From NCBI GenBank assembly GCA_965197745.1, contig CBDANS010000007.1, positions 832,001 to 896,000 on the forward strand: a DNA stretch of 64,000 bases, given 5' to 3'. The notes under the pieces were generated by a model that saw only the letters and a list, made by a program, of their open reading frames with translations, was not told the origin of the DNA and made no database searches. Shown one piece after another: positions 4,366 through 13,414 of this stretch; positions within the stretch are counted from its first letter, which is position 1, and each line of letters begins with the position of its first letter. The stretch is from Opitutales bacterium (lineage in GTDB: Bacteria > Verrucomicrobiota > Verrucomicrobiia > Opitutales > PNEW01). The translations under genes and the position numbers were made by a program.

Positions 4366-4895
4366 CTATTCGGGGGCCAATTTCATATCACAGAACCAAT
4401 AGGCTAAGACCATTAATTAAGCAAATCCCTGATTGCGCAATGGCTGGATTTAATTCGGTGAATAAAGAAATAATAGAAACGGATCTTCCCACCCGTCGTT
4501 TAGGAAAGACCTGATCGGACCCCGTATTTCGTATCAAATTTTAAGTGAGAGAACTACCGGGTGTTAATGGTTTTAGGATTGATGTATATGAGAGATCTTG
4601 GCGCAGTGAGGGCGTAGCCCGAACGCGGCCAAGAGCGGAAAGGAATGTGACAAACTCTTGTGGGCTTTTAAAGCCTAATCGACTGTGGGGATGTTCATTG
4701 TTATAGGTCTGACGCCATTGTTCTATTAGCACTTGCGCTTCAGCCACGCTGAGCAACACTTCACGGTTCAAACACTCATCGCGTAAGCGGTTGTGAAACG
4801 ACTCGATGAAACCGTTCCAGGGACTGCCCGGATCGATATATATCGCCTTGATCTTTTTGTCGGACAACCACTGCTGCACCTGATGAGCAATGAAT

Positions 4896-4927
4896 GGCTT
4901 CGCATGTCGTCGCTTCGCTCCTCGGAA
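4896..4927 (-). repeat. 32-nt GA-rich hairpin insertion in IS3 orfB (SDNGS-E-F site)
   Basis: TTCCGAGGAGCGAAGCGACGACATGCGAAGCC; 31/32 identical to 11565-11596. Confidence 0.9.
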
Positions 4928-5055
4928 CACTGCCGTTGTCACTGCGGATATAGCTAGGAACTCCCTCTTCATCGATGGTTTCGCTGAGTACCGAGAGAAC
5001 ATCGGTTGAGGTGAGCTGTCGAGCTACCCGGATGCGTAAACATTTACGCGTATAT

Positions 5056-5098
5056 GTCTTCGCTTCGCTTGAGTGTCGTCGCTTTCAGCTCCTCGGTA
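5056..5098 (-). repeat. 43-nt related hairpin insertion in IS3 orfB (ID-E-YTR site)
   Basis: TACCGAGGAGCTGAAAGCGACGACACTCAAGCGAAGCGAAGAC; absent from the equivalent site of the second IS (GATGAGTACACC). Confidence 0.88.
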
Positions 5099-5527
5099 CA
5101 TCGATCAAGGTCATCATCTTTAGCATACCGCCATTGTCTGTACGATCATGGACAAAGTCCCAGGACCAGACGTGATTGCGACCGGTTGCTTTAGTAGGGA
5201 GCCCAGTAGAGATCCCCTGACGGTGTCTACGCTTTTTTGGGGGCTTTACCTGTAAGCCCGAAGAACGTCGCACTGCCTGTACAAATTTCCTGCTTGCCGC
5301 CCAACCTTCTTTCACCAGCAAGGCACGAATGCGCCGGTAACCGTAACGGGGATGTTCCCAGGACAAGGTCAAAATCCGCTCGGCCAATTGCTGAGCCTTC
5401 TTACTGGCCTGCTTGGGTCGGTAGCTGTACGTTGACCAACTGAGGCTGAGATAAGCACAAGCCCTCTAAAACGAGCACAGCCCCTTCTCAGCCGCATCTT
5501 TTACTGCTCGCTTCTTCTGCTTTGGGC

Positions 5528-5794
5528 TCACCATTTTTTTGAGAGCGTTTCCTCCAACACCCGAAGCTTGAGCATTTGATCAGCGAGCATCTTCTTCAGC
5601 TCCGTATTCTCCTTTTCCAGCTCTTTAAATCGCTTCGCATCAGCCAGCTCCAAGTTGCCATACTTTTTGCCCCAGCGATAGAAGGTCTGTTCACTTAGGT
5701 TGTTGCCGTGGCAGACTTCCTGCACGGTTTTGCCCGTATCGGGCTGCCGCAGTATTGCTATGATCTGTTCTGTTGTATATCTTTTTCTTTTCAT
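5528..5794 (-). CDS. IS3 OrfA (HTH_Tnp_1)
   Basis: MKRKRYTTEQII...SEQTFYRW...LEKENTELKKMLAD, ending in an A-rich slippery tract. Confidence 0.9.
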   Translation of the reverse strand: MKRKRYTTEQIIAILRQPDTGKTVQEVCHGNNLSEQTFYRWGKKYGNLELADAKRFKELEKENTELKKMLADQMLKLRVLEETLSKKW

Positions 5795-6795
5795 TGAGGT
5801 TATCTGTTTATCCCGATAACCTCTCTCTGTTAATGATACCATTTTTGGGGGTCACTCCATGCCGAATTATACCCGACGGTGCTCAGTCTCGGTGGGGTCC
5901 ATTTAGGAGGTGCGCAGAACGGTCTGGGTATAGAGGGTGATGATGAAAGGGCTGCGGACATGGTGGAAACTGCCTGTCGTTTGGGCATAACTCTTGTCGA
6001 TACTTCGCCCCTTTACGGAAGAAGTGAATACCGAGTCGGAATAGCATTAAAAAGAAATAAATTTTCCGACCTCATAATATCAACTAAAACGGGCACTCAT
6101 CCGGAACGTCAATACAGTTATTCTAATGAGGATCTTCGCTGGTCATTTAATAATAGTCTGCGCATGCTGGGCCGAATATGTGTGGATGTAGCAATGATCC
6201 ACGATCCACCCAGTATGCAACCTGTATTTAAGTCGGGTCATGGATTTGACACTATGGAGGAGCTGCGAAAAGAGGGTAAACTGCGTTATATTGGGCTCGG
6301 CGTTCGGGATCACTCATTTCACATTGAGGCCATCAAAGCGGGTAAAGTGGATGTCATTCTCACTTACGGAGATTTCAATCTAGTTCGAAGAACCGCGCGT
6401 TCTCTTATTGACATGGCCTACAATGAAGGGGTGGGAGTATTTCTCGGTTCACCTCAAATGCTTGGACTGCTTGCTCGTGGTGAGCCCGCACATGTTGCGA
6501 AGGAACAATTAAATCTTACTAATTGGTTTAATGATGGGGATTTTAAAACAGCTCAGGAGTGGTGGTTGTGGTGTCGCGAGCGTGATATACAACTCAGGCA
6601 TTTGAACATGCGTTATATCATGAATAATCCCAAAATAGGATGTGTTCTCACGGGGGGGGGCGACAGTAGAAGAATTAGAACAAAATATTCACGAGGCACT
6701 GACACCAATTCCAAAAGATATATGGAATGAAGCAATGGAGAGGATTGTCATGCTGGATGAAAAAGCTTCGCGCTGAAATGACAAGAAACACATAG

Positions 6796-6834
6796 AAAAA
6801 AGCCACCATCCTGTTGCCGCAGGATGATGGCTTT
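6796..6834. terminator. Intrinsic, likely bidirectional terminator
   Basis: AAAAAA-GCCACCATCCTG-loop-CAGGATGATGGC-TTT between convergent genes. Confidence 0.75.
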
Positions 6835-6865
6835 ATTAATCTGACCTCTATTAATCTATCGGAAA

Positions 6866-7396
6866 TTATCCTTTAATAATTGTCCTGTATTGCAGCTCGG
6901 GAACGAGTTTTTCAGTTGCTCGTCGAGCCGAGGTTTTGAAATGCTCAATCGTGGTGGCGGGCGGATTAAAATCAATGGTTAGATAACGCCCGACAAATAT
7001 TCCGAGCTTTTCTTTTCCACTTGGTGAATTAAGCGTAGCAGACATCCGTGTTTCAAATTCACCTAATCGGTTGATTCTCCACTCCAGGAGATTGATATTT
7101 AGAACAGTAACGCCTTCCGGAATATCGCTTCCAAAACGAATAAACTTTAGATTAACTGGATATTCTTCGTTTTCGATTACTGAGCTGATACTTTGACTGA
7201 GATGATTGAATCGGTCTTTTTCACCAATATCCGTCAGGTTGGCTTCAGCCGTATAGATCCCTGAATGATCAATTATGCGAACGTAAAGTGTATCGTACGC
7301 GGAGATTTCCACAATCTTCTCTTCTTTTGCATTCAGCGTTCCTATGAAAGCAATGAATAGTGAGACTAACACTGCTGTTGTCATTTTTAATTTCAT
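6866..7396 (-). CDS. Hypothetical exported protein
   Basis: Signal-peptide-like MKLKMTTAVLVSLFIAFIGTLNA from ATG 7396; no family recognised. Confidence 0.7.
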   Translation of the reverse strand: MKLKMTTAVLVSLFIAFIGTLNAKEEKIVEISAYDTLYVRIIDHSGIYTAEANLTDIGEKDRFNHLSQSISSVIENEEYPVNLKFIRFGSDIPEGVTVLNINLLEWRINRLGEFETRMSATLNSPSGKEKLGIFVGRYLTIDFNPPATTIEHFKTSARRATEKLVPELQYRTIIKG

Positions 7397-7556
7397 CGTA
7401 GTAACTTTTTTTTTTAATATTTCAGGCCCATTCATCATCATGCCTGTTATGTGATCGTCACATTTTTTTAAACAATTAGAGATAATAGGATGGTGATTTA
7501 TTCCCGTTCAGTCCGTCCGAATAAATACGTGACGATGCAATATTTCAAACTTTCTG

Positions 7557-7663
7557 GCGGCCACGATCAGCCGTCGCCCCGCAACAGCGAAGCTATGGCC
7601 GACAGGCATTGCCTGGCCCACCAGAATGAAAACAAATGGGAGGACCACGCGTTGTCGTGGCCG
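7557..7663. repeat. Inverted REP doublet (GGAG-type) with a 40-nt palindrome inserted in the left copy
   Basis: GCGGCCACGA[7567-7606]CATTGCCTGGCCCACC ... GGAGGACCACGCGTTGTCGTGGCCG; compare 17910-17980. Confidence 0.7.
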
Positions 7664-7695
7664 AAGACGAAGCGAACGATGATTTTATTCTAACT

Positions 7696-8433
7696 CTAAC
7701 TCCATAGAAGCTTTGATTTTCGCCCATGTTTTTCTAAAAGCGATTCGGCTGCGTTTATAACTAGAGCGTTTATATCAATAGCTTCCATGATGTCAGAGAT
7801 CATATGTTTACCTGCGGCATGAACTTTATCCACAGCCTTGGCAAAAGCTTCTTTCGCTTTAGGATGATCAGGTTCTCCTGGAAGATCCAATGATTGGGCG
7901 ATATCTTCGGGGCCCCCTGTAAAATAATCTATACCGTCGACAGTAAGAATCTCATCCAGATTTTCAAATGCGGTGATACTCTCCAATTGCGGGACTAACA
8001 TTGTATTTTCGTTGGTGAAATTATAGACATACTTACGATCGGTTTTCGCCGCGTTAAAAATCATGCGAATACCGGTGGCGCTACGAGCTCCCTTGGGGCC
8101 GTAATATGTATATTCAACAAGGGCTTCAGCTTCCTCCCTGGTCTTTAAATTGGGAACTACGATCATTCTTATCCCCCGATCCAGATAGCTGAGGATCGTG
8201 CTCTCTTTCTGATCAGGAATACGCATGGCAGGCGTAATTCCAAAACCGTCAGCGACACGACACATATGCTCCACGGTTTCGGGAGGAACCGATGTGTGTT
8301 GACCTTCAAAGTAGACATAATCAAGCCCCGTGAGGGCGGCTAATTCAATAAGATCTTCTTCTCCCGACCTGACATTCAAGCCTAATGCTTTTTCACCTTT
8401 TCGCACCCTTTCAAGTATTTTGTTAGTCTTCAT
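7696..8433 (-). CDS. HpcH/HpaI aldolase/citrate lyase family protein
   Basis: DYVYFEGQH, LDRG, YGPKGARS, PQLES and GPEDIAQSL motifs. Confidence 0.9.
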   Translation of the reverse strand: MKTNKILERVRKGEKALGLNVRSGEEDLIELAALTGLDYVYFEGQHTSVPPETVEHMCRVADGFGITPAMRIPDQKESTILSYLDRGIRMIVVPNLKTREEAEALVEYTYYGPKGARSATGIRMIFNAAKTDRKYVYNFTNENTMLVPQLESITAFENLDEILTVDGIDYFTGGPEDIAQSLDLPGEPDHPKAKEAFAKAVDKVHAAGKHMISDIMEAIDINALVINAAESLLEKHGRKSKLLWS

Positions 8434-8650
8434 AAATAACCTTTCATGTTTATCGTTCTTTTTCGATTAACTACGCCTCCTTATGATCGAAATATACATC
8501 AGGATATATATCAAGAGTCTATTGCGTATCAGGTAATTATTAAATTGAATTCGTGCCTGAAAAATGAGCCATGCGTGGTTATATTCTTTTGCTTTTTAAA
8601 TTATTGCTTAATAATCTGGGCCTGAATCTAAAAAACAAAAGATTGGATTT

Positions 8651-9787
8651 ATGAAAACTTATGATTTTCGTTCTGGATGCACTGATCCGGCCTCATTTCC
8701 CGCGGCGCAGATAGCAGAGTATGCGGCTGAGGCAATTAATGAGGTGGGCATTGATTTTGCGAGATATCCGGGAGATCTGGGTCATTTAGGCCTTCGAGAA
8801 GTGATGGCTGCGCGAGAATCCCAGCGGGAAGGCGTGGAGGTTTCACCCGACAATATTTCCTTAATGAATGGGTCGATGCAGCCCCTTGCTCTCGTCGCTG
8901 AAGCACTGATGGAAAAACGCGGCGATATAATAATAACAGAGGAGCTGACCTATTCGGGAACGATCAGCGTTTATAAAAGTCTGGGGGCTAAACTGGTCGG
9001 TATACCCATGGATGAACATGGCATGAAAATAGATGCGCTTGAAAAAACAATGAATGAACTCCACGAAAAGGGCACACCACCTCGTTTTATCTACAGCTTG
9101 CCCACTTACCAAAATCCGACGGGAACCCTAATGCCTGAATCCCGTCGCTTGGAACTCATAGAAGTGGCACTTAAATATAATACCGTATTAGTGGATGATA
9201 ATTGCTATGGAGATGTTCATTTTGAAGGTAAAAAAGAGCCCTCGCTATATGCTTTGAATGATAGCCCCAATATAATTTATTTATGTTCGCTCTCGAAAAT
9301 TTTGGGGCCGGGTCTTCGCTTGGGATATCTTATTGCTCACCAGCCCATGCTCAGCCGCATCCTGGATCGTCGTTTTGATGGGGGGAACAGTCTTTTAGCT
9401 GCGTCCGTATGTGCCGCCTACTTAAAAGATAATATTTGGGATTATGTCGCTAAAGCAAACACGCTGCTGAAAGAAAAAAGGGATGCGGTTTATGCCGGAT
9501 TGGAAGCGAGCGTGAGTGATATTTGCACCTGGTCCCATCCGATCGGGGGCATTTTTATCTGGGTGCAATTTCCCGACGATGTGGATAGAGCTAAGCTTGC
9601 TGCTCTCCTTGAGAAAGAGGGAATCCTTTATGGACCCGGATCAGCCTACCATGTAGAGGGAAAAGATATACCTTATCTCCGCCTGGCTTTCGGCTATTGC
9701 AGTTTGGAGGAGATTAATAAATGTATTCCTCTTGTTGGTCAGGCAATTCATGCATCGAGGAAATCAATTGCCCAAGCTGCAGTATAA
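8651..9787 (+). CDS. PLP-dependent class I/II aminotransferase (LysN/MocR-type, no HTH)
   Basis: YQNPTG, DDNCYG, SLSKILGPGLRLG and LRLAF motifs. Confidence 0.9.
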   Translation: MKTYDFRSGCTDPASFPAAQIAEYAAEAINEVGIDFARYPGDLGHLGLREVMAARESQREGVEVSPDNISLMNGSMQPLALVAEALMEKRGDIIITEELTYSGTISVYKSLGAKLVGIPMDEHGMKIDALEKTMNELHEKGTPPRFIYSLPTYQNPTGTLMPESRRLELIEVALKYNTVLVDDNCYGDVHFEGKKEPSLYALNDSPNIIYLCSLSKILGPGLRLGYLIAHQPMLSRILDRRFDGGNSLLAASVCAAYLKDNIWDYVAKANTLLKEKRDAVYAGLEASVSDICTWSHPIGGIFIWVQFPDDVDRAKLAALLEKEGILYGPGSAYHVEGKDIPYLRLAFGYCSLEEINKCIPLVGQAIHASRKSIAQAAV

Positions 9788-9871
9788 ACATAGACCTCCA
9801 TATAATTCCCTGTTTAAGTGAAAATAGTTAACCCCTAAATCCTAACGCTGAAAATCTATTGGATTTTCAAT

Positions 9872-10489
9872 TTACTTCACCAGAACAGTGTAAGAAAGCA
9901 CACCGTCTGAAGGGGAATCAAACTTAACATCCGTGTAACTGTCTTTTCGCAAGATTAATTTTTGAGTTCCACTGGGTTGGAGATCAAGGCTGCCCTCTAT
10001 TCGAAAGGAGCATGATACCTGGATGCGTAATGGTCCATTAGTTTCATTTTTTATACGCGCCCAAACACGAATATGATTATCATTCAGGGGATGGGCTTCA
10101 ACACGGGGAAGTGTGACAGAAGCATTATAGGCCTTTGACATGACCTTCATGTCCGGGATCAGGACGATACCATTCCAATCGGGTTCAGGCAGAGAGACTT
10201 CAATCTCGGGTTTAGGTGTGCTTGCTCGATTCGAAGCGTTCGCATCAACTGGCACTGCAGGAAAAAGAGTAGGGGGTGCAGCTTCTTCTGTCAGATAAAC
10301 AATGGAGTTTTCAAAGTAGGTCTGGGTCTCTACAGCGTGAGGGAGAACTTTTGGATTATCGGTTGATTCAACCAGGGTTAAAGCCGCTTTAGGCAGCTCA
10401 TCTTTCCCCGCAGCGAAGAATTTGAGGTAAATAAAAAAACCGCCAACTCCGAGAACCATGATCAAAATAATAATGAATAGCTTTTTCAT
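9872..10489 (-). CDS. Membrane-anchored protein with YcfL/DUF1425-like C-terminal beta domain
   Basis: N-terminal TM helix, Pro-rich linker, then IRVWARIKN...IQVSCSF...YTVLVK. Confidence 0.6.
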   Translation of the reverse strand: MKKLFIIILIMVLGVGGFFIYLKFFAAGKDELPKAALTLVESTDNPKVLPHAVETQTYFENSIVYLTEEAAPPTLFPAVPVDANASNRASTPKPEIEVSLPEPDWNGIVLIPDMKVMSKAYNASVTLPRVEAHPLNDNHIRVWARIKNETNGPLRIQVSCSFRIEGSLDLQPSGTQKLILRKDSYTDVKFDSPSDGVLSYTVLVK

Positions 10490-10739
10490 ATCTTTAATTG
10501 TTAGAACAGTTTCATCACATAATATAATTTATAAAAATTTAGTCAACGCATCTCATTGTGACTTCATAAATAACTTGTAGTATGTTGAAAAACAACATTT
10601 TATAAATATCAGAAAAAGGTGATGATGACCTTGCTTAAAGTAGGTTATATTAATAGTGCAGGGTGGACGCAGTGGTCGTGACCACGAAAACTGGTCCACT
10701 TGAAAAGTTAGTCTGGTCCAACTAGAAAGGACACAGACA

Positions 10740-11006
10740 ATGAAAGGCAAAAGATACACGACCGAAGAGAAAATACGGATGCTGCGCCAGGCGGACAAAG
10801 GGAAAACGATCCTGGAAGCATGCCGCGAGAACAACATAAGCGAACAGACCTTCCACCGCTGGAAACGTGAGTTTGGGATGATTGATGTCAACCAGGCCAA
10901 GCGGATGAAGGAGCTCGAGAAGGAGAACGCGCGGTTAAAACGGATGCTGGCGGACAAGATGCTGGGGATAGAGATCCTGCAGGAGACCCTCGAAAAAAAA
11001 CTGTAA
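10740..11006 (+). CDS. IS3 OrfA (HTH_Tnp_1)
   Basis: MKGKRYTTEEKI...SEQTFHRWK...LEKENARLKRMLAD. Confidence 0.93.
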   Translation: MKGKRYTTEEKIRMLRQADKGKTILEACRENNISEQTFHRWKREFGMIDVNQAKRMKELEKENARLKRMLADKMLGIEILQETLEKKL

Positions 11007-11026
11007 GCCCTGGGCACAAGCGGCAA

Positions 11027-11981
11027 GTGGCAGAGAGACTTGTGACTCGGGGCCAGTGTTCGATGCGAGCGGGGTGCCGGTACTTTCGGCTGCACCGTTC
11101 CACCTATGCGTATAGGGCCAAGCATCCGGATGCCTGGCTAACGAAACTAAAAGCGGCAGTAAGGCGGTTATCACGGCAATACGCGAGGTGGGGCTATCCC
11201 AAGATCACGAAGCTGTTGAAGGACGAAGGCTGGCAGGTGGGTAAACGTCTCGTGCAAGGTCTGCGACGTGAACTGGGTCTGGCGATCCCCCCACGCAAGC
11301 CAAGACGCCGGCGCAGGGGTGTCTGCACCGGGCTACCGACAAAGGCCGAACATCCCGACCATGTTTGGACCTGGGATTTTATCCACGATAAGACGGTTCG
11401 CGGCGGCAGTCTAAAAATGCTGACCGTGCTCGATGAGTACACCCGCGAGTGCCGGGTGATCCATGTTGATCGCCATATCAATGCGGAAACGGTGCGCGGT
11501 ATCATGCAAAAACTGCTCGACCGGCATGGGCCGCCAAAATATATTCGTAGCGACAACGGTTCCGTTCCGAGGAGCGAAGCGACGACATGCAAAGCCATTC
11601 ATTGAAAGCCAATTGAGAGCCTGGCTAACTGCGATGAAAATCAAAACCCTCTATATCGAACCAGCAAGCCCTTGGCAGAACGGATACATTGAATCGTTCC
11701 ATGCCCGTTTTCGCGAGGAGTGTTTAAACCGTGAACAGTTATGGACTTTGACCGAAGCCCGCGTGGTCATCGAAGATTGGCGCTGGCTTTACAATCATGT
11801 CCGACCCCACCGCAGCCTCGGCAACATCACTCCACGGCACTTCACTGAAAACCTCAATACCGAAGGCTCGGGCTCCATTCGGGCTACGCCCTCATTGCGC
11901 CCAAGCCTTGACTTCCTCTACCAACTTAACTTCAACATTAACCTCTCCAGACTAACTCTCCCGGTGGACCAGTTTGTGTAA
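11027..11981 (+). pseudogene. IS3 OrfB, frameshifted only by the 32-nt insertion at 11565-11596
   Basis: WTWDF...LDEYTREC...RSDNGS in one frame; FIESQLRAW...SPWQNGYIESF...RPHRSLG in the +1 frame. Confidence 0.88.
11565..11596 (+). repeat. 32-nt GA-rich hairpin insertion in IS3 orfB
   Basis: TTCCGAGGAGCGAAGCGACGACATGCAAAGCC, at the same site as 4896-4927. Confidence 0.9.
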
Positions 11982-12085
11982 CCCGACCAGCAGAGACAGT
12001 GACGTCGAGCCAAGGGGGCTGGATCTTGACAATAACTATCGGCCTCTATTTTGTGCCGCTGTGCGAAAGTTTGATTATTAACGCC

Positions 12086-13414
12086 ATGAATAGTGAAGAA
12101 TTGAAACAGGTTGTGTGCGCGGCCATAGACCAGCGCAGCGAGCGTATCGTCGAGACGGGTGAAGCGATTATGGACGAACCCGAGTTGGGGTTTAAGGAGA
12201 GGGCTACCGCTGATAAAGTAAAAGCCACATTCGATGAATTGAATCTGGAATATGAAGACAGGCTCGCGTTGACTGGTGTGAAAGCCAGGTTGAAGGGTGG
12301 GCGACCGGGACCGACGCTGGCGCTTATGGGTGAGCTGGATGCCTTGCTCGTGCCCGATCATCCACGAGCTAACAAAGAGACTGGGGCGGCGCACGCCTGT
12401 GGGCACAATGCCCAAATTGCGGGATTGCTCGGAGCGGCCCGGGGATTAGTTGATTCCGGTGCGGCCAAAGAGCTGGCGGGGGACATAGTTTTTTTTGCGG
12501 TACCGGCTGAAGAATATGTGGAGATCGAATACCGTTTGGGTTTGGTAAGAGAGGGACGCACCACTTTTCTCTCGGGAAAGCCAGAGTTGGTTCAACTCGG
12601 TCATTTTGATGATGTGGATATGGCGATTATGATTCACAGCATCAGCGCGGGGCCCGCCGATGGGGCCATGGGAGTTACAAGCTCGTTTAATGGATTCATC
12701 GCAAAATGTATTCGATTCACGGGACAAGCAGCCCATGCCGGGTGTGAACCCGAGAGTGGTATCAATGCTTTGAATGCCGCTCAACTGGCAATTAGTGCGA
12801 TAAACGCTCAGCGTGAAACCTTTCGCGACCAGGATTGCGTGCGTGTGCATCCGATAATCACTAAAGGTGGCGATCTGGTGAATATCGTACCTGCTGAAGT
12901 GCGTATGGAGACCTATGTTCGCGCTCGAACCCATGAAGCAATTCTCGATGCCACGCTCAAAGTTGATCGCGCCCTCAAAGGTGCTGCTTTAGCCATCGGC
13001 TGCCAGGTGGAGATCGAGACGGTGCCCGGCTATCTGCCATTGCGAAATGATCCGGATCTGGCCCGTCTCTTCCGGGAAAACGCGAGCCGCTTTTTTGGCA
13101 AGAATAAATACAGGGACTACCCGCACAACGGGGGTTCGACAGATGCAGGTGATCTGAGTCATATTATGCCGGTACTGCATCCCATGATGTCAGGAGCAGC
13201 GGGAACGGTACACAGCCCAGATTGGCATATCGCCGATCCCGTTGCCGGTTATCTGACTCCAGCCAAAACACTCGCGGTGATGGCTGTCGATCTATTGCAT
13301 GGTGATGAAAACAGAGCGAAGGGCATTGTCGACCGACATAAGCCGGCTTTGACAAAGAATGAGTATTTAAAACAGCAGCGAGCGTTGTTCAGCACCGATG
13401 TTTTCTCCGGATAG
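12086..13414 (+). CDS. M20 family amidohydrolase (ACY1L2/AbgB-like)
   Basis: PELGFKE, GELDAL, HACGHN, PAEE and GSTDAGD motifs; likely start ATG 12086. Confidence 0.92.
   Translation: MNSEELKQVVCAAIDQRSERIVETGEAIMDEPELGFKERATADKVKATFDELNLEYEDRLALTGVKARLKGGRPGPTLALMGELDALLVPDHPRANKETGAAHACGHNAQIAGLLGAARGLVDSGAAKELAGDIVFFAVPAEEYVEIEYRLGLVREGRTTFLSGKPELVQLGHFDDVDMAIMIHSISAGPADGAMGVTSSFNGFIAKCIRFTGQAAHAGCEPESGINALNAAQLAISAINAQRETFRDQDCVRVHPIITKGGDLVNIVPAEVRMETYVRARTHEAILDATLKVDRALKGAALAIGCQVEIETVPGYLPLRNDPDLARLFRENASRFFGKNKYRDYPHNGGSTDAGDLSHIMPVLHPMMSGAAGTVHSPDWHIADPVAGYLTPAKTLAVMAVDLLHGDENRAKGIVDRHKPALTKNEYLKQQRALFSTDVFSG

Follow-up and report, generated by a model that had tools for sequence, protein, structure and literature searches.

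In a window of 64,000 nucleotides from an Opitutales bacterium (Verrucomicrobiota), two divergent insertion sequences (IS) of the IS3 family, here called IS-A and IS-B, carry almost the same short block of DNA, the type I mini-insert, in the Glu codon of the motif SDNGS-E-FI of their transposase. We found that this block is one variant in a family of very small DNA repeats that is restricted to one lineage. The reading that we prefer, with a probability of about 0.6, is that a mini-insert akin to the small dispersed repeats (SDR) and the repetitive extragenic palindromes (REP) disables the transposase, passes from one IS copy to another by copying and multiplies along with these copies.

The core of the block, CGAGGAGCGAAGCGACGAC, was present in the window at 4906-4924 on the minus strand and at 11568-11586 on the plus strand, which means two occurrences against 0.01 expected, and none of 100 shuffles gave two or more. 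The 32-nt strings at 4896-4927 (minus strand) and 11565-11596 (plus strand) were identical at 31 of 32 positions and one base apart (ATGCGAAGCC vs ATGCAAAGCC). The codon before the 32-nt block was different (AGT vs TCC), the codons two or more positions after it were different too, and the 300-nt flanks of the site showed 55-60% identity between the superfamilies A and B. The claim of the sequence-only reading that the same 32-nt block stands at the same codon of two divergent IS3 transposases was therefore confirmed.

The extent of the insert and what it replaces were determined by comparing filled and empty copies. Among 13 near-identical IS-B copies in the genome (G000, 92% complete, whose coordinates are prefixed C4 to C7 below, bare positions being those of the window), 9 were filled and 4 were empty, so that insert-bearing copies do occur at several loci. 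The empty IS-B copies read GGTTCC G AG TTT ATT and the filled ones GGTTCC G TTCCGAGGAGCGAAGCGACGACATGCAAAGCCA TTC ATT. Since 33 nt stand for AG in this comparison, the true unit is 33 nt and the net gain is 31 nt, which agrees with the net length that had been deduced from the letters alone. Empty IS-A-type copies read GGCAGT G AG/AA TTC, which is the same replacement. Public data, in the form of contigs of four runs placed on window positions 4400-12100 (contigs cannot show rare variants), gave the same picture: a contig of run X1 skipped exactly 4895-4927 and had CT instead (AG on the gene strand), and contigs of runs X2 and X17 skipped 11565-11597 and had AG or AGTTT instead. Both filled and empty forms were seen in contigs of public runs from three studies, and because these contigs are independent, the insert is not an assembly artefact. 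The idea of a tiny non-autonomous inserted element was borne out, and filled and empty alleles exist on identical backgrounds.

Type I shifts the reading frame (+31), and in IS-B a TGA comes 9 nt past the insert, a change that is predicted to inactivate the transposase, as the sequence-only reading had also supposed. The empty alleles read GAG or GAA and match the intact orfB of 307 aa, and two IS-B copies were fully intact, with an empty site and an intact orfA. In the intact copy L053 the 307-aa orfB was open and matched Pfam HTH_21, rve (1.7e-22) and rve_3 (4.2e-26), while its orfA matched HTH_Tnp_1 at 3.6e-20. The insert and one synonymous TTT/TTC change were the sole differences between the IS-B of the window and L053, so the earlier statement that the insert is the only lesion of the second IS was correct. 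Its intact ends and perfect target duplication were found as claimed: the ends are TGG...CCA and the 4-bp duplication is GCAG, with CTTC and CTCT in two other copies, which is in line with membership in IS3. A GAAAAAAAACTG run lies at the end of orfA in IS-B, which fits the orfA/orfB layout of the IS3 type, joined by a -1 frameshift at an A-run.

When the whole genome was searched, the type I core gave 79 matches at up to 2 mismatches (64 of them exact; control 0), and by context 73 of these stood at the one codon, 5 in a repeat resembling miniature inverted-repeat transposable elements (MITE) and 1 in a sister variant. A regular-expression count of this codon, called site 2, over the genome gave 71 filled and 10 empty cases (81 sites), and a looser expression gave 82 sites, with 34 filled and 5 empty in superfamily A, 36 filled and 5 empty in superfamily B, and two whose flanks were assigned to different superfamilies. 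Four sister variants were found at four other sites: type II (44 nt, net +42) at site 1, LID-E-YTR, with 42 sites empty and 30 filled; type III (44 nt, net +42) at site 3, SPW-Q-NG, with 71 empty and 8 filled; type IV (37 nt, net +35) at site 4, RD-E-CLN, with 70 empty and 9 filled; and a variant of 25 nt (net +23) on the opposite strand at the orfA/orfB frameshift site, with 36 empty and 7 filled. By regular-expression occupancy each of the five sites held solely its own variant. All five variants start with T(A/T)CCGAG, end with CA and replace a dinucleotide beginning with A after C or G, and types II and IV contain in-frame stops. All of the 27 full-length IS-A-type copies carried types I and II (one had a one-base variant of type I), and 6 of the 27 had perfect 4-bp target duplications. 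The more distant IS3 relatives in the genome were all empty (19 loci, one codon only).

These variants belong to a family that is spread over the genome, with the architecture T[AT]CCGAG, a variable stem-loop, and CGACAT..CA (3' part CGACATCTTCCA), and with units of 24-44 nt. The strict family pattern had 44 matches in the genome and none in the reversed control, and altogether 103 family instances with 63 distinct hairpin regions were collected. Full pairing, leaving a loop of at most 5 nt, was found in 42 of the 63 regions as compared with 710 of 3150 shuffles, with 17 different stems; many of the stem-loops contain GCGNAGC, and sequence and length vary while the pairing is kept. According to the part of PMC13037366 that deals with it, GCGNAGC is an extraordinarily stable DNA mini-hairpin, with a melting temperature of 76.5 °C for GCGAAGC, which the standard thermodynamic models fail to explain. 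The hairpin that had been proposed for type I was not reproduced by nearest-neighbour folding of the inserts as DNA (ViennaRNA), which was no better than that of shuffles (z +1.2 to +2.0); the predicted hairpin rests on the published GCGAAGC mini-hairpin (passages of PMC13037366) and on the covariation across the family.

The hosts of the family are not limited to transposase genes. Family members occur at GGC|AA|TCCAGG in a MITE-like inverted repeat, GTCATTGCGAGG...CCTCGCAATGAC, which has variable hairpins of its own (e.g. C7:491383-491500); the first 11 nt of this element (TCATTGCGAGG, one mismatch allowed) gave 226 loose matches, many of them chance, and 44 were associated with a family member. 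They also occur in TAGCCAC/AAAAGGCAC arrays, where clear filled and empty units were seen at TAGCCAC|AA|AAGGCAC, in heptamer-like CAATCGN arrays, and in the T-loop (GGTTCG|AA|TCC) of partial tRNA copies, which hosts a type-II-like variant. The MITE-like element and both kinds of array host mini-inserts frequently. The replacement signature was common to 7 of the 8 host contexts compared, namely IS sites 1-4, the opposite-strand frameshift site (CTTAC|AG|TTTTTTT), the TAGCCAC|AA|AAGGCAC arrays and the T-loop of the tRNA fragments, and the MITE-like host was off by one base. In filled/empty pairs 2 nt were replaced, and there was neither a target duplication nor a terminal inverted repeat. The recurrence of type I at the same codon of deeply diverged IS3 lineages was thus supported, but the kind of element does not aim at transposases as the sequence-only reading had proposed, since the family is genome-wide.

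Outside this genome, the exact 23-nt type I core was found in only two other species records among 185,579. One is a complete Opitutales chromosome, a metagenome-assembled genome (MAG), where the core stands at 11 loci and always in this same codon. The MAG comes from a close relative: the two unique flanks that matched were 95-99% identical, and the flanks compared to see whether filled IS lie at non-orthologous places there were repeats. The strict family pattern had 66 matches in this relative and 0 in the reversed control. The other record is a contig of an Opitutaceae MAG (L037), in which a 44-nt relative of type I sits in an IS5-like transposase (DUF772 + DDE_Tnp_1) and replaces the Glu codon in ...GRKY-E-FGQKV; it is in frame (+42), and the ORF (open reading frame) of 456 aa stays open. 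In the L037 genome the loose family pattern gave 13 matches as compared with 2 in the control, and these look like chance; in 400 other genomes sampled from the phylum the family pattern gave 0. Our literature searches found no description of this repeat family.

The age of the inserts can be judged by comparing the sublineages IS-A and IS-A'. Over 144 codons around the inserts dS was 0.65, dN 0.08 and omega 0.12, i.e. purifying selection, and inserts II and I showed 0/44 and 0/33 differences between the two lineages. At the same time 43% of the synonymous sites differed, and neutral inserts of the same age would show about 33 differences in 77 nt. The inserts must therefore be much younger than their host lineages, or have been kept identical. 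Copy A4 represents the A' background with site 1 empty, and the relative has IS copies with only type IV or only type II. That each site holds only its own variant argues for a passage of variants from a filled site to the homologous empty site and against an element that chooses its targets freely. Traces of such recombination were found at several places: an A/B chimera joined at the insert (C6:204096), three B/A chimeras in the relative (L032, L034 and L040), a B-type patch of about 75 nt that follows the insert immediately in the A-type copy App1, and, in IS-B, a change of TTT to TTC that accompanies the insert. Filled and empty IS-B copies share an orfA polymorphism in shuffled combinations, and many copies have no target duplications. 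In addition, IS-A-type copies with inserts have perfect target duplications, which means that the broken copies, or their immediate ancestors, have transposed.

The preferred reading would bring these results together as follows. Primary insertion would swap a dinucleotide (A plus any base) after C or G, with no duplication and no terminal inverted repeats. Type I took the place of the last two bases of the Glu codon just past the second catalytic Asp, so that the frame shifts by +31 and the enzyme is presumably dead, and in like manner the sister variants hit three other codons as well as the frameshift site, the latter on the opposite strand. Each variant may have arisen rarely and spread passively through the multiplication of its carrier IS copies. 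It would also have spread laterally, across IS copies and lineages, when recombination or gene conversion carried it from a filled site into a homologous empty one. The filled copies would most likely be mobilised in trans by the transposase of a few intact relatives; the terminal sequences of IS-A and IS-B are alike.

Several results weigh against this reading. Around type II, IS-A and IS-A' are identical over no more than about 8 nt upstream and about 9 nt downstream, far below an ordinary conversion tract, so that lateral copying would need either unusually short patches or a restoration of the flanks. In several sublineages every copy has the insert, and such fixation suggests a bias beyond plain conversion. 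No intact IS-A-type transposase was found in this 92%-complete genome, so the mobilisation of IS-A in trans needs a lost or cross-acting helper; a preference for action in cis is reported for IS3 transposases. To our knowledge, the two-base replacement matches no familiar footprint of DDE, HUH, serine or tyrosine enzymes, and the searches for RVT_1 and for Y1/RAYT (REP-associated tyrosine transposase) genes gave no enzyme candidate for the primary insertion. No reverse transcriptase (RVT_1) was found in this genome or in the 4.5-Mb chromosome record of the relative. The genome has one Y1_Tnp match (C6:163380-163706, 46.3 bits), with no family member within about 3 kb on either side, so that the HUH/RAYT gene flanked by the motif, which the sequence-only reading had thought of, was not found. 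The gene carries NHYH and YIHLNP motifs, which fits subclass 2.1, tabulated without REP in Table 1 of PMC6006769. Y1_Tnp matches numbered 6 in the relative and 2 in the L037 genome, with no obvious correlation with the family. The orientation of family members relative to the local GC skew showed no bias (31:31 and 23:18), a comparison that is confounded by nesting in other repeats, and their left flanks vary, with only C/G in common.

In a first rival, the mini-hairpins would be hyperparasites of IS that propagate themselves by "homing" into transposase genes: in a heteroduplex of a filled and an empty copy the stable hairpin loop would escape mismatch correction while the flank mismatches are repaired, or alternatively an unknown site-specific enzyme would be at work. 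We consider this doubtful. If it is true, the insert is copied into strongly diverged IS without its flanks and with a bias towards gain, and whole IS families are progressively silenced. The version with a dedicated activity, either of a parasite of transposase genes or of a host system for silencing IS, which recognises the empty codon context and installs the matching variant precisely and with transmission bias, is in our judgement unlikely. It would explain why inserts at homologous codons of lineages with dS 0.65 are identical with less than 10 nt of shared flank, why type I is at the same codon in superfamilies A and B with their poorly conserved flanks, and why it is fixed in all copies of several sublineages. 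Type II at site 1 of B-like copies as well (C6:198369, C6:552641 and C7:1061241), the longer type I relative in the Y-E-F codon of the unrelated IS5-like transposase of L037, and the copies of the relative that carry single inserts in different combinations also speak for it. However, the searches gave no enzyme that could do this, no extended target is discernible for the whole family, and most of its members are in non-coding repeats. One variant per site, co-converted flanks and chimeras are what homology-guided copying predicts, and the conserved motifs are the only places where diverged IS share enough sequence for recombination.

A different rival takes the insert as a built-in switch. 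Filled copies would still make transposase because the ribosome bypasses the insert (by a hop or a +1 shift), or because RNA splicing or DNA excision removes it. This rival fits with broken copies that look recently multiplied, 6 of the 27 IS-A-type copies having target duplications, with the lack of an intact IS-A in the genome, with frames that are otherwise open on both sides of the insert, and with a CCG codon in type I and a CCA triplet 28 nt downstream as a possible take-off/landing pair, AGGAG following the CCG (by inspection). We nevertheless regard it as improbable. The four variants in codons have net lengths of +31, +35, +42 and +42 and, by inspection, no take-off/landing codon pair in common, and in-frame stops occur in types II and IV. 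A simple removal of the insert cannot restore Glu, since its codon has lost two bases, and the empty copies carry the ancestral GAG or GAA. Rfam gave no match at the inserts (up to E = 1 the sole hit in window positions 4400-12100 was a chance match at 7327-7515), and RNA folding of the insert surroundings was no better than that of shuffles (z +0.2 and +1.3). The same family also sits in non-coding DNA, where a recoding role would be meaningless. As for splicing, contigs of an RNA library, which may contain DNA, keep inserts I and II (records 9, 10 and 14), and the only insert-free joints of this library carry AG or AGTTT, like the genomic empty allele, although this is weak evidence since these are contigs and DNA is possible. 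Splicing and excision were rejected on the ground that all joints at inserts in the contigs of the four runs are AG, AGTTT or CT, i.e. the genomic empty form. An internal start within the insert (AGGAG, 12 nt, ATG) was rejected separately: the ATG is in the wrong frame, and in IS-B a stop follows after 9 codons.

Near-identical inserts across lineages whose flanks are only 55-60% identical could finally go back to one ancient insertion in the common ancestor, held unchanged by selection and lost precisely in the empty copies. This is very improbable in our view, and the single ancestral insertion that the earlier reading had allowed for can hardly be kept. The empties are exact GAG or GAA on backgrounds identical to the filled ones, which would require many precise reversions of a 2-nt replacement, the more distant IS3 relatives are all empty, and the four inserts occur in all combinations. 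Moreover, 0/77 differences against 43% synonymous difference would need an extreme constraint on a sequence that breaks the gene.

Among known systems, the SDRs of cyanobacteria come closest. Elhai et al. 2008 reportedly described SDR1-8 of Nostoc and Anabaena as "very small mobile repeated elements" of 21-27 nt with a structure conserved by compensatory changes, and they are said to have proposed an RNA intermediate. Compared by description, with the help of the passages that cite this work in PMC5861425 and PMC3116915, the SDR class can be regarded as the nearest analogue of our family, and REP and REPIN as the next nearest. Like SDRs, the mini-inserts are tens of nucleotides long, have a stem-loop kept by compensatory changes, are lineage-restricted and make no target duplication, and their copies lie within tandem heptamer-like arrays, mini-transposon-like repeats and other mobile DNA. 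Unlike SDRs, the units here are 24-44 nt and so somewhat larger, they show clean filled/empty pairs with replacement of a dinucleotide and fixed transposase codons, and no reverse transcriptase was found. According to the relevant passage in PMC5861425, no SDR occurs outside the Nostocaceae among the cyanobacteria examined; the present family belongs to Opitutales (Verrucomicrobiota), so the SDRs may be an analogue at best.

With REP and REPIN, as portrayed in passages of PMC3116915, PMC2817692 and PMC6006769, the family shares short hairpins, a conserved 5' motif beside a variable stem, tens to hundreds of copies, a non-autonomous nature and some GCGAAGC-like loops. Its head is T[AT]CCGAG, and it has no GT[AG]G tetranucleotide like that of the REP examples in Table 1 of PMC2817692. 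In contrast to REP and RAYT, the motif does not flank the single Y1 gene, copies lie inside genes and a dinucleotide is replaced; nearby inverted pairs of family members do occur within the MITE-like repeats. The family differs from the single-stranded DNA elements of IS200/IS605 (PATEs) in having no fixed tetra- or pentanucleotide on the left flank and no orientation bias tied to replication, and from MITEs in having neither terminal inverted repeats nor a target-site duplication. Bypass elements are known from T4 gene 60 and as the "byps" of Magnusiomyces mitochondria. These are also short hairpin-bearing inserts (27-55 nt) in coding sequence and can be mobile, but here inspection showed no consistent take-off and landing codons across the four variants, the codon is not restorable and the same family occurs in non-coding DNA. 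The RPE palindromic elements of Rickettsia lie in frame in genes, and Correia and RUP are MITE-type repeats inside genes. They resemble our family as selfish hairpin DNA within ORFs, the L037 copy being in frame; the mini-inserts are several times shorter, have no terminal inverted repeats or duplication, and types I and IV shift the frame.

With their 24-44 nt, the mini-inserts lie at the lower end of the sizes possible for mobile DNA. The genome and its close relative offer dozens of filled/empty alleles on identical backgrounds, which define the replacement signature T[AT]CC...CA with five variants at five sites of one gene family. Most copies of two IS3 superfamilies appear to have lost their transposase through hits in conserved catalytic-core codons and are multiplying all the same, which bears on how IS expansions are curbed. 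In practice, such inserts lead to transposase genes being called as split or as "pseudogenes", and they create hot spots at which unrelated IS recombine.

Table 1 Coordinates of the two IS3 elements of the window, their mini-inserts, and the tRNA fragments with inserts elsewhere in the genome
Feature	Position	Strand	Description
IS-A, IS3 family, 1348 bp	4512..5859	-	orfB broken by type I and type II inserts; Pfam HTH_Tnp_1 on orfA
Type I mini-insert, 33 nt, G variant	4895..4927	-	homologous Glu codon of the IS-A transposase
Type II mini-insert, 44 nt, TACCGAGGAGCTGAAAGCGACGACACTCAAGCGAAGCGAAGACA	5055..5098	-	replaces AA of the Glu codon LID-E-YTR in IS-A; in-frame TGA inside
IS-B, IS3 family, 1317 bp	10673..11989	+	TGG...CCA ends
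IS-B target duplication GCAG, 4 bp	left 10669-10672, right 11990-11993		direct repeat
IS-B orfA	10740-11006	+	A-run frameshift site near 10990-11003
IS-B orfB, split by the insert	11027-11563 and 11598-11981	+	reading frames
Type I mini-insert, 33 nt, TTCCGAGGAGCGAAGCGACGACATGCAAAGCCA	11565..11597	+	replaces AG of the Glu codon, SDNGS-E-FI, in the IS-B transposase; net +31
Partial tRNA 3' copies with a 39-40-nt type-II-like insert for the T-loop AA	C6:355467-355720		after tRNA-Asn(GTT), twice in tandem
Partial tRNA 3' copies with a 39-40-nt type-II-like insert for the T-loop AA	C5:236461-236620		after tRNA-Gln(CTG)

Some further features of the IS copies were recorded. In the IS-A of the window a CAA codon (3 nt) is absent at 4816/4817, exactly at site 3, where type III sits elsewhere; other copies and public contigs have TTG on the plus strand there. 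The missing codon may be a scar, or its position may be coincidental. A block GAGGGCGTAGCCCGA, which matches the core of mini-insert family members exactly, was found at 4608-4622 (plus strand) in IS-A and at 11879-11893 (minus strand) in IS-B, in both cases antisense to the transposase at the 3' end of orfB (peptide RATPSLR). The IS-A-type copy App3 is without 22 nt at this block, and IS-A and IS-B were joined at it in contigs and in one genomic copy (C6:1444799).

Small changes were also seen away from the insert sites. In 6 of the 13 IS-B copies, filled and empty alike, CTC-GA-GAAGG in orfA is changed to CTC-TTT-GAAGG (+1 nt, a frameshift; window region 10915-10920), and copy A4 (C6:662523-663871) has GC-TCT-AGCG for GC-GA-AGCG, where two bases are again changed to three. 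The decayed IS-A-type copy E3 (C7:150710-152091) has an extra segment of 28 nt (CTAGGTGAGAAGACCTGCCATACCGAGC...) in orfA which partly repeats the adjacent sequence, and in a decayed B-type copy (C7:1466429) the empty site 2 reads TCC TAG TTC, i.e. the Glu codon is mutated to a stop. Tyrosine-integrase genes with frames of 419-432 aa adjoin or sit inside IS-B-type copies at C4:136043-136489, C7:1065131-1065586, C7:1087573-1088037, C7:164755-165216, C7:945540-945992 and C7:1352039-1352509, and at C7:1065131 the integrase gene cuts an IS short, about 100 nt past its type I insert on the downstream side.

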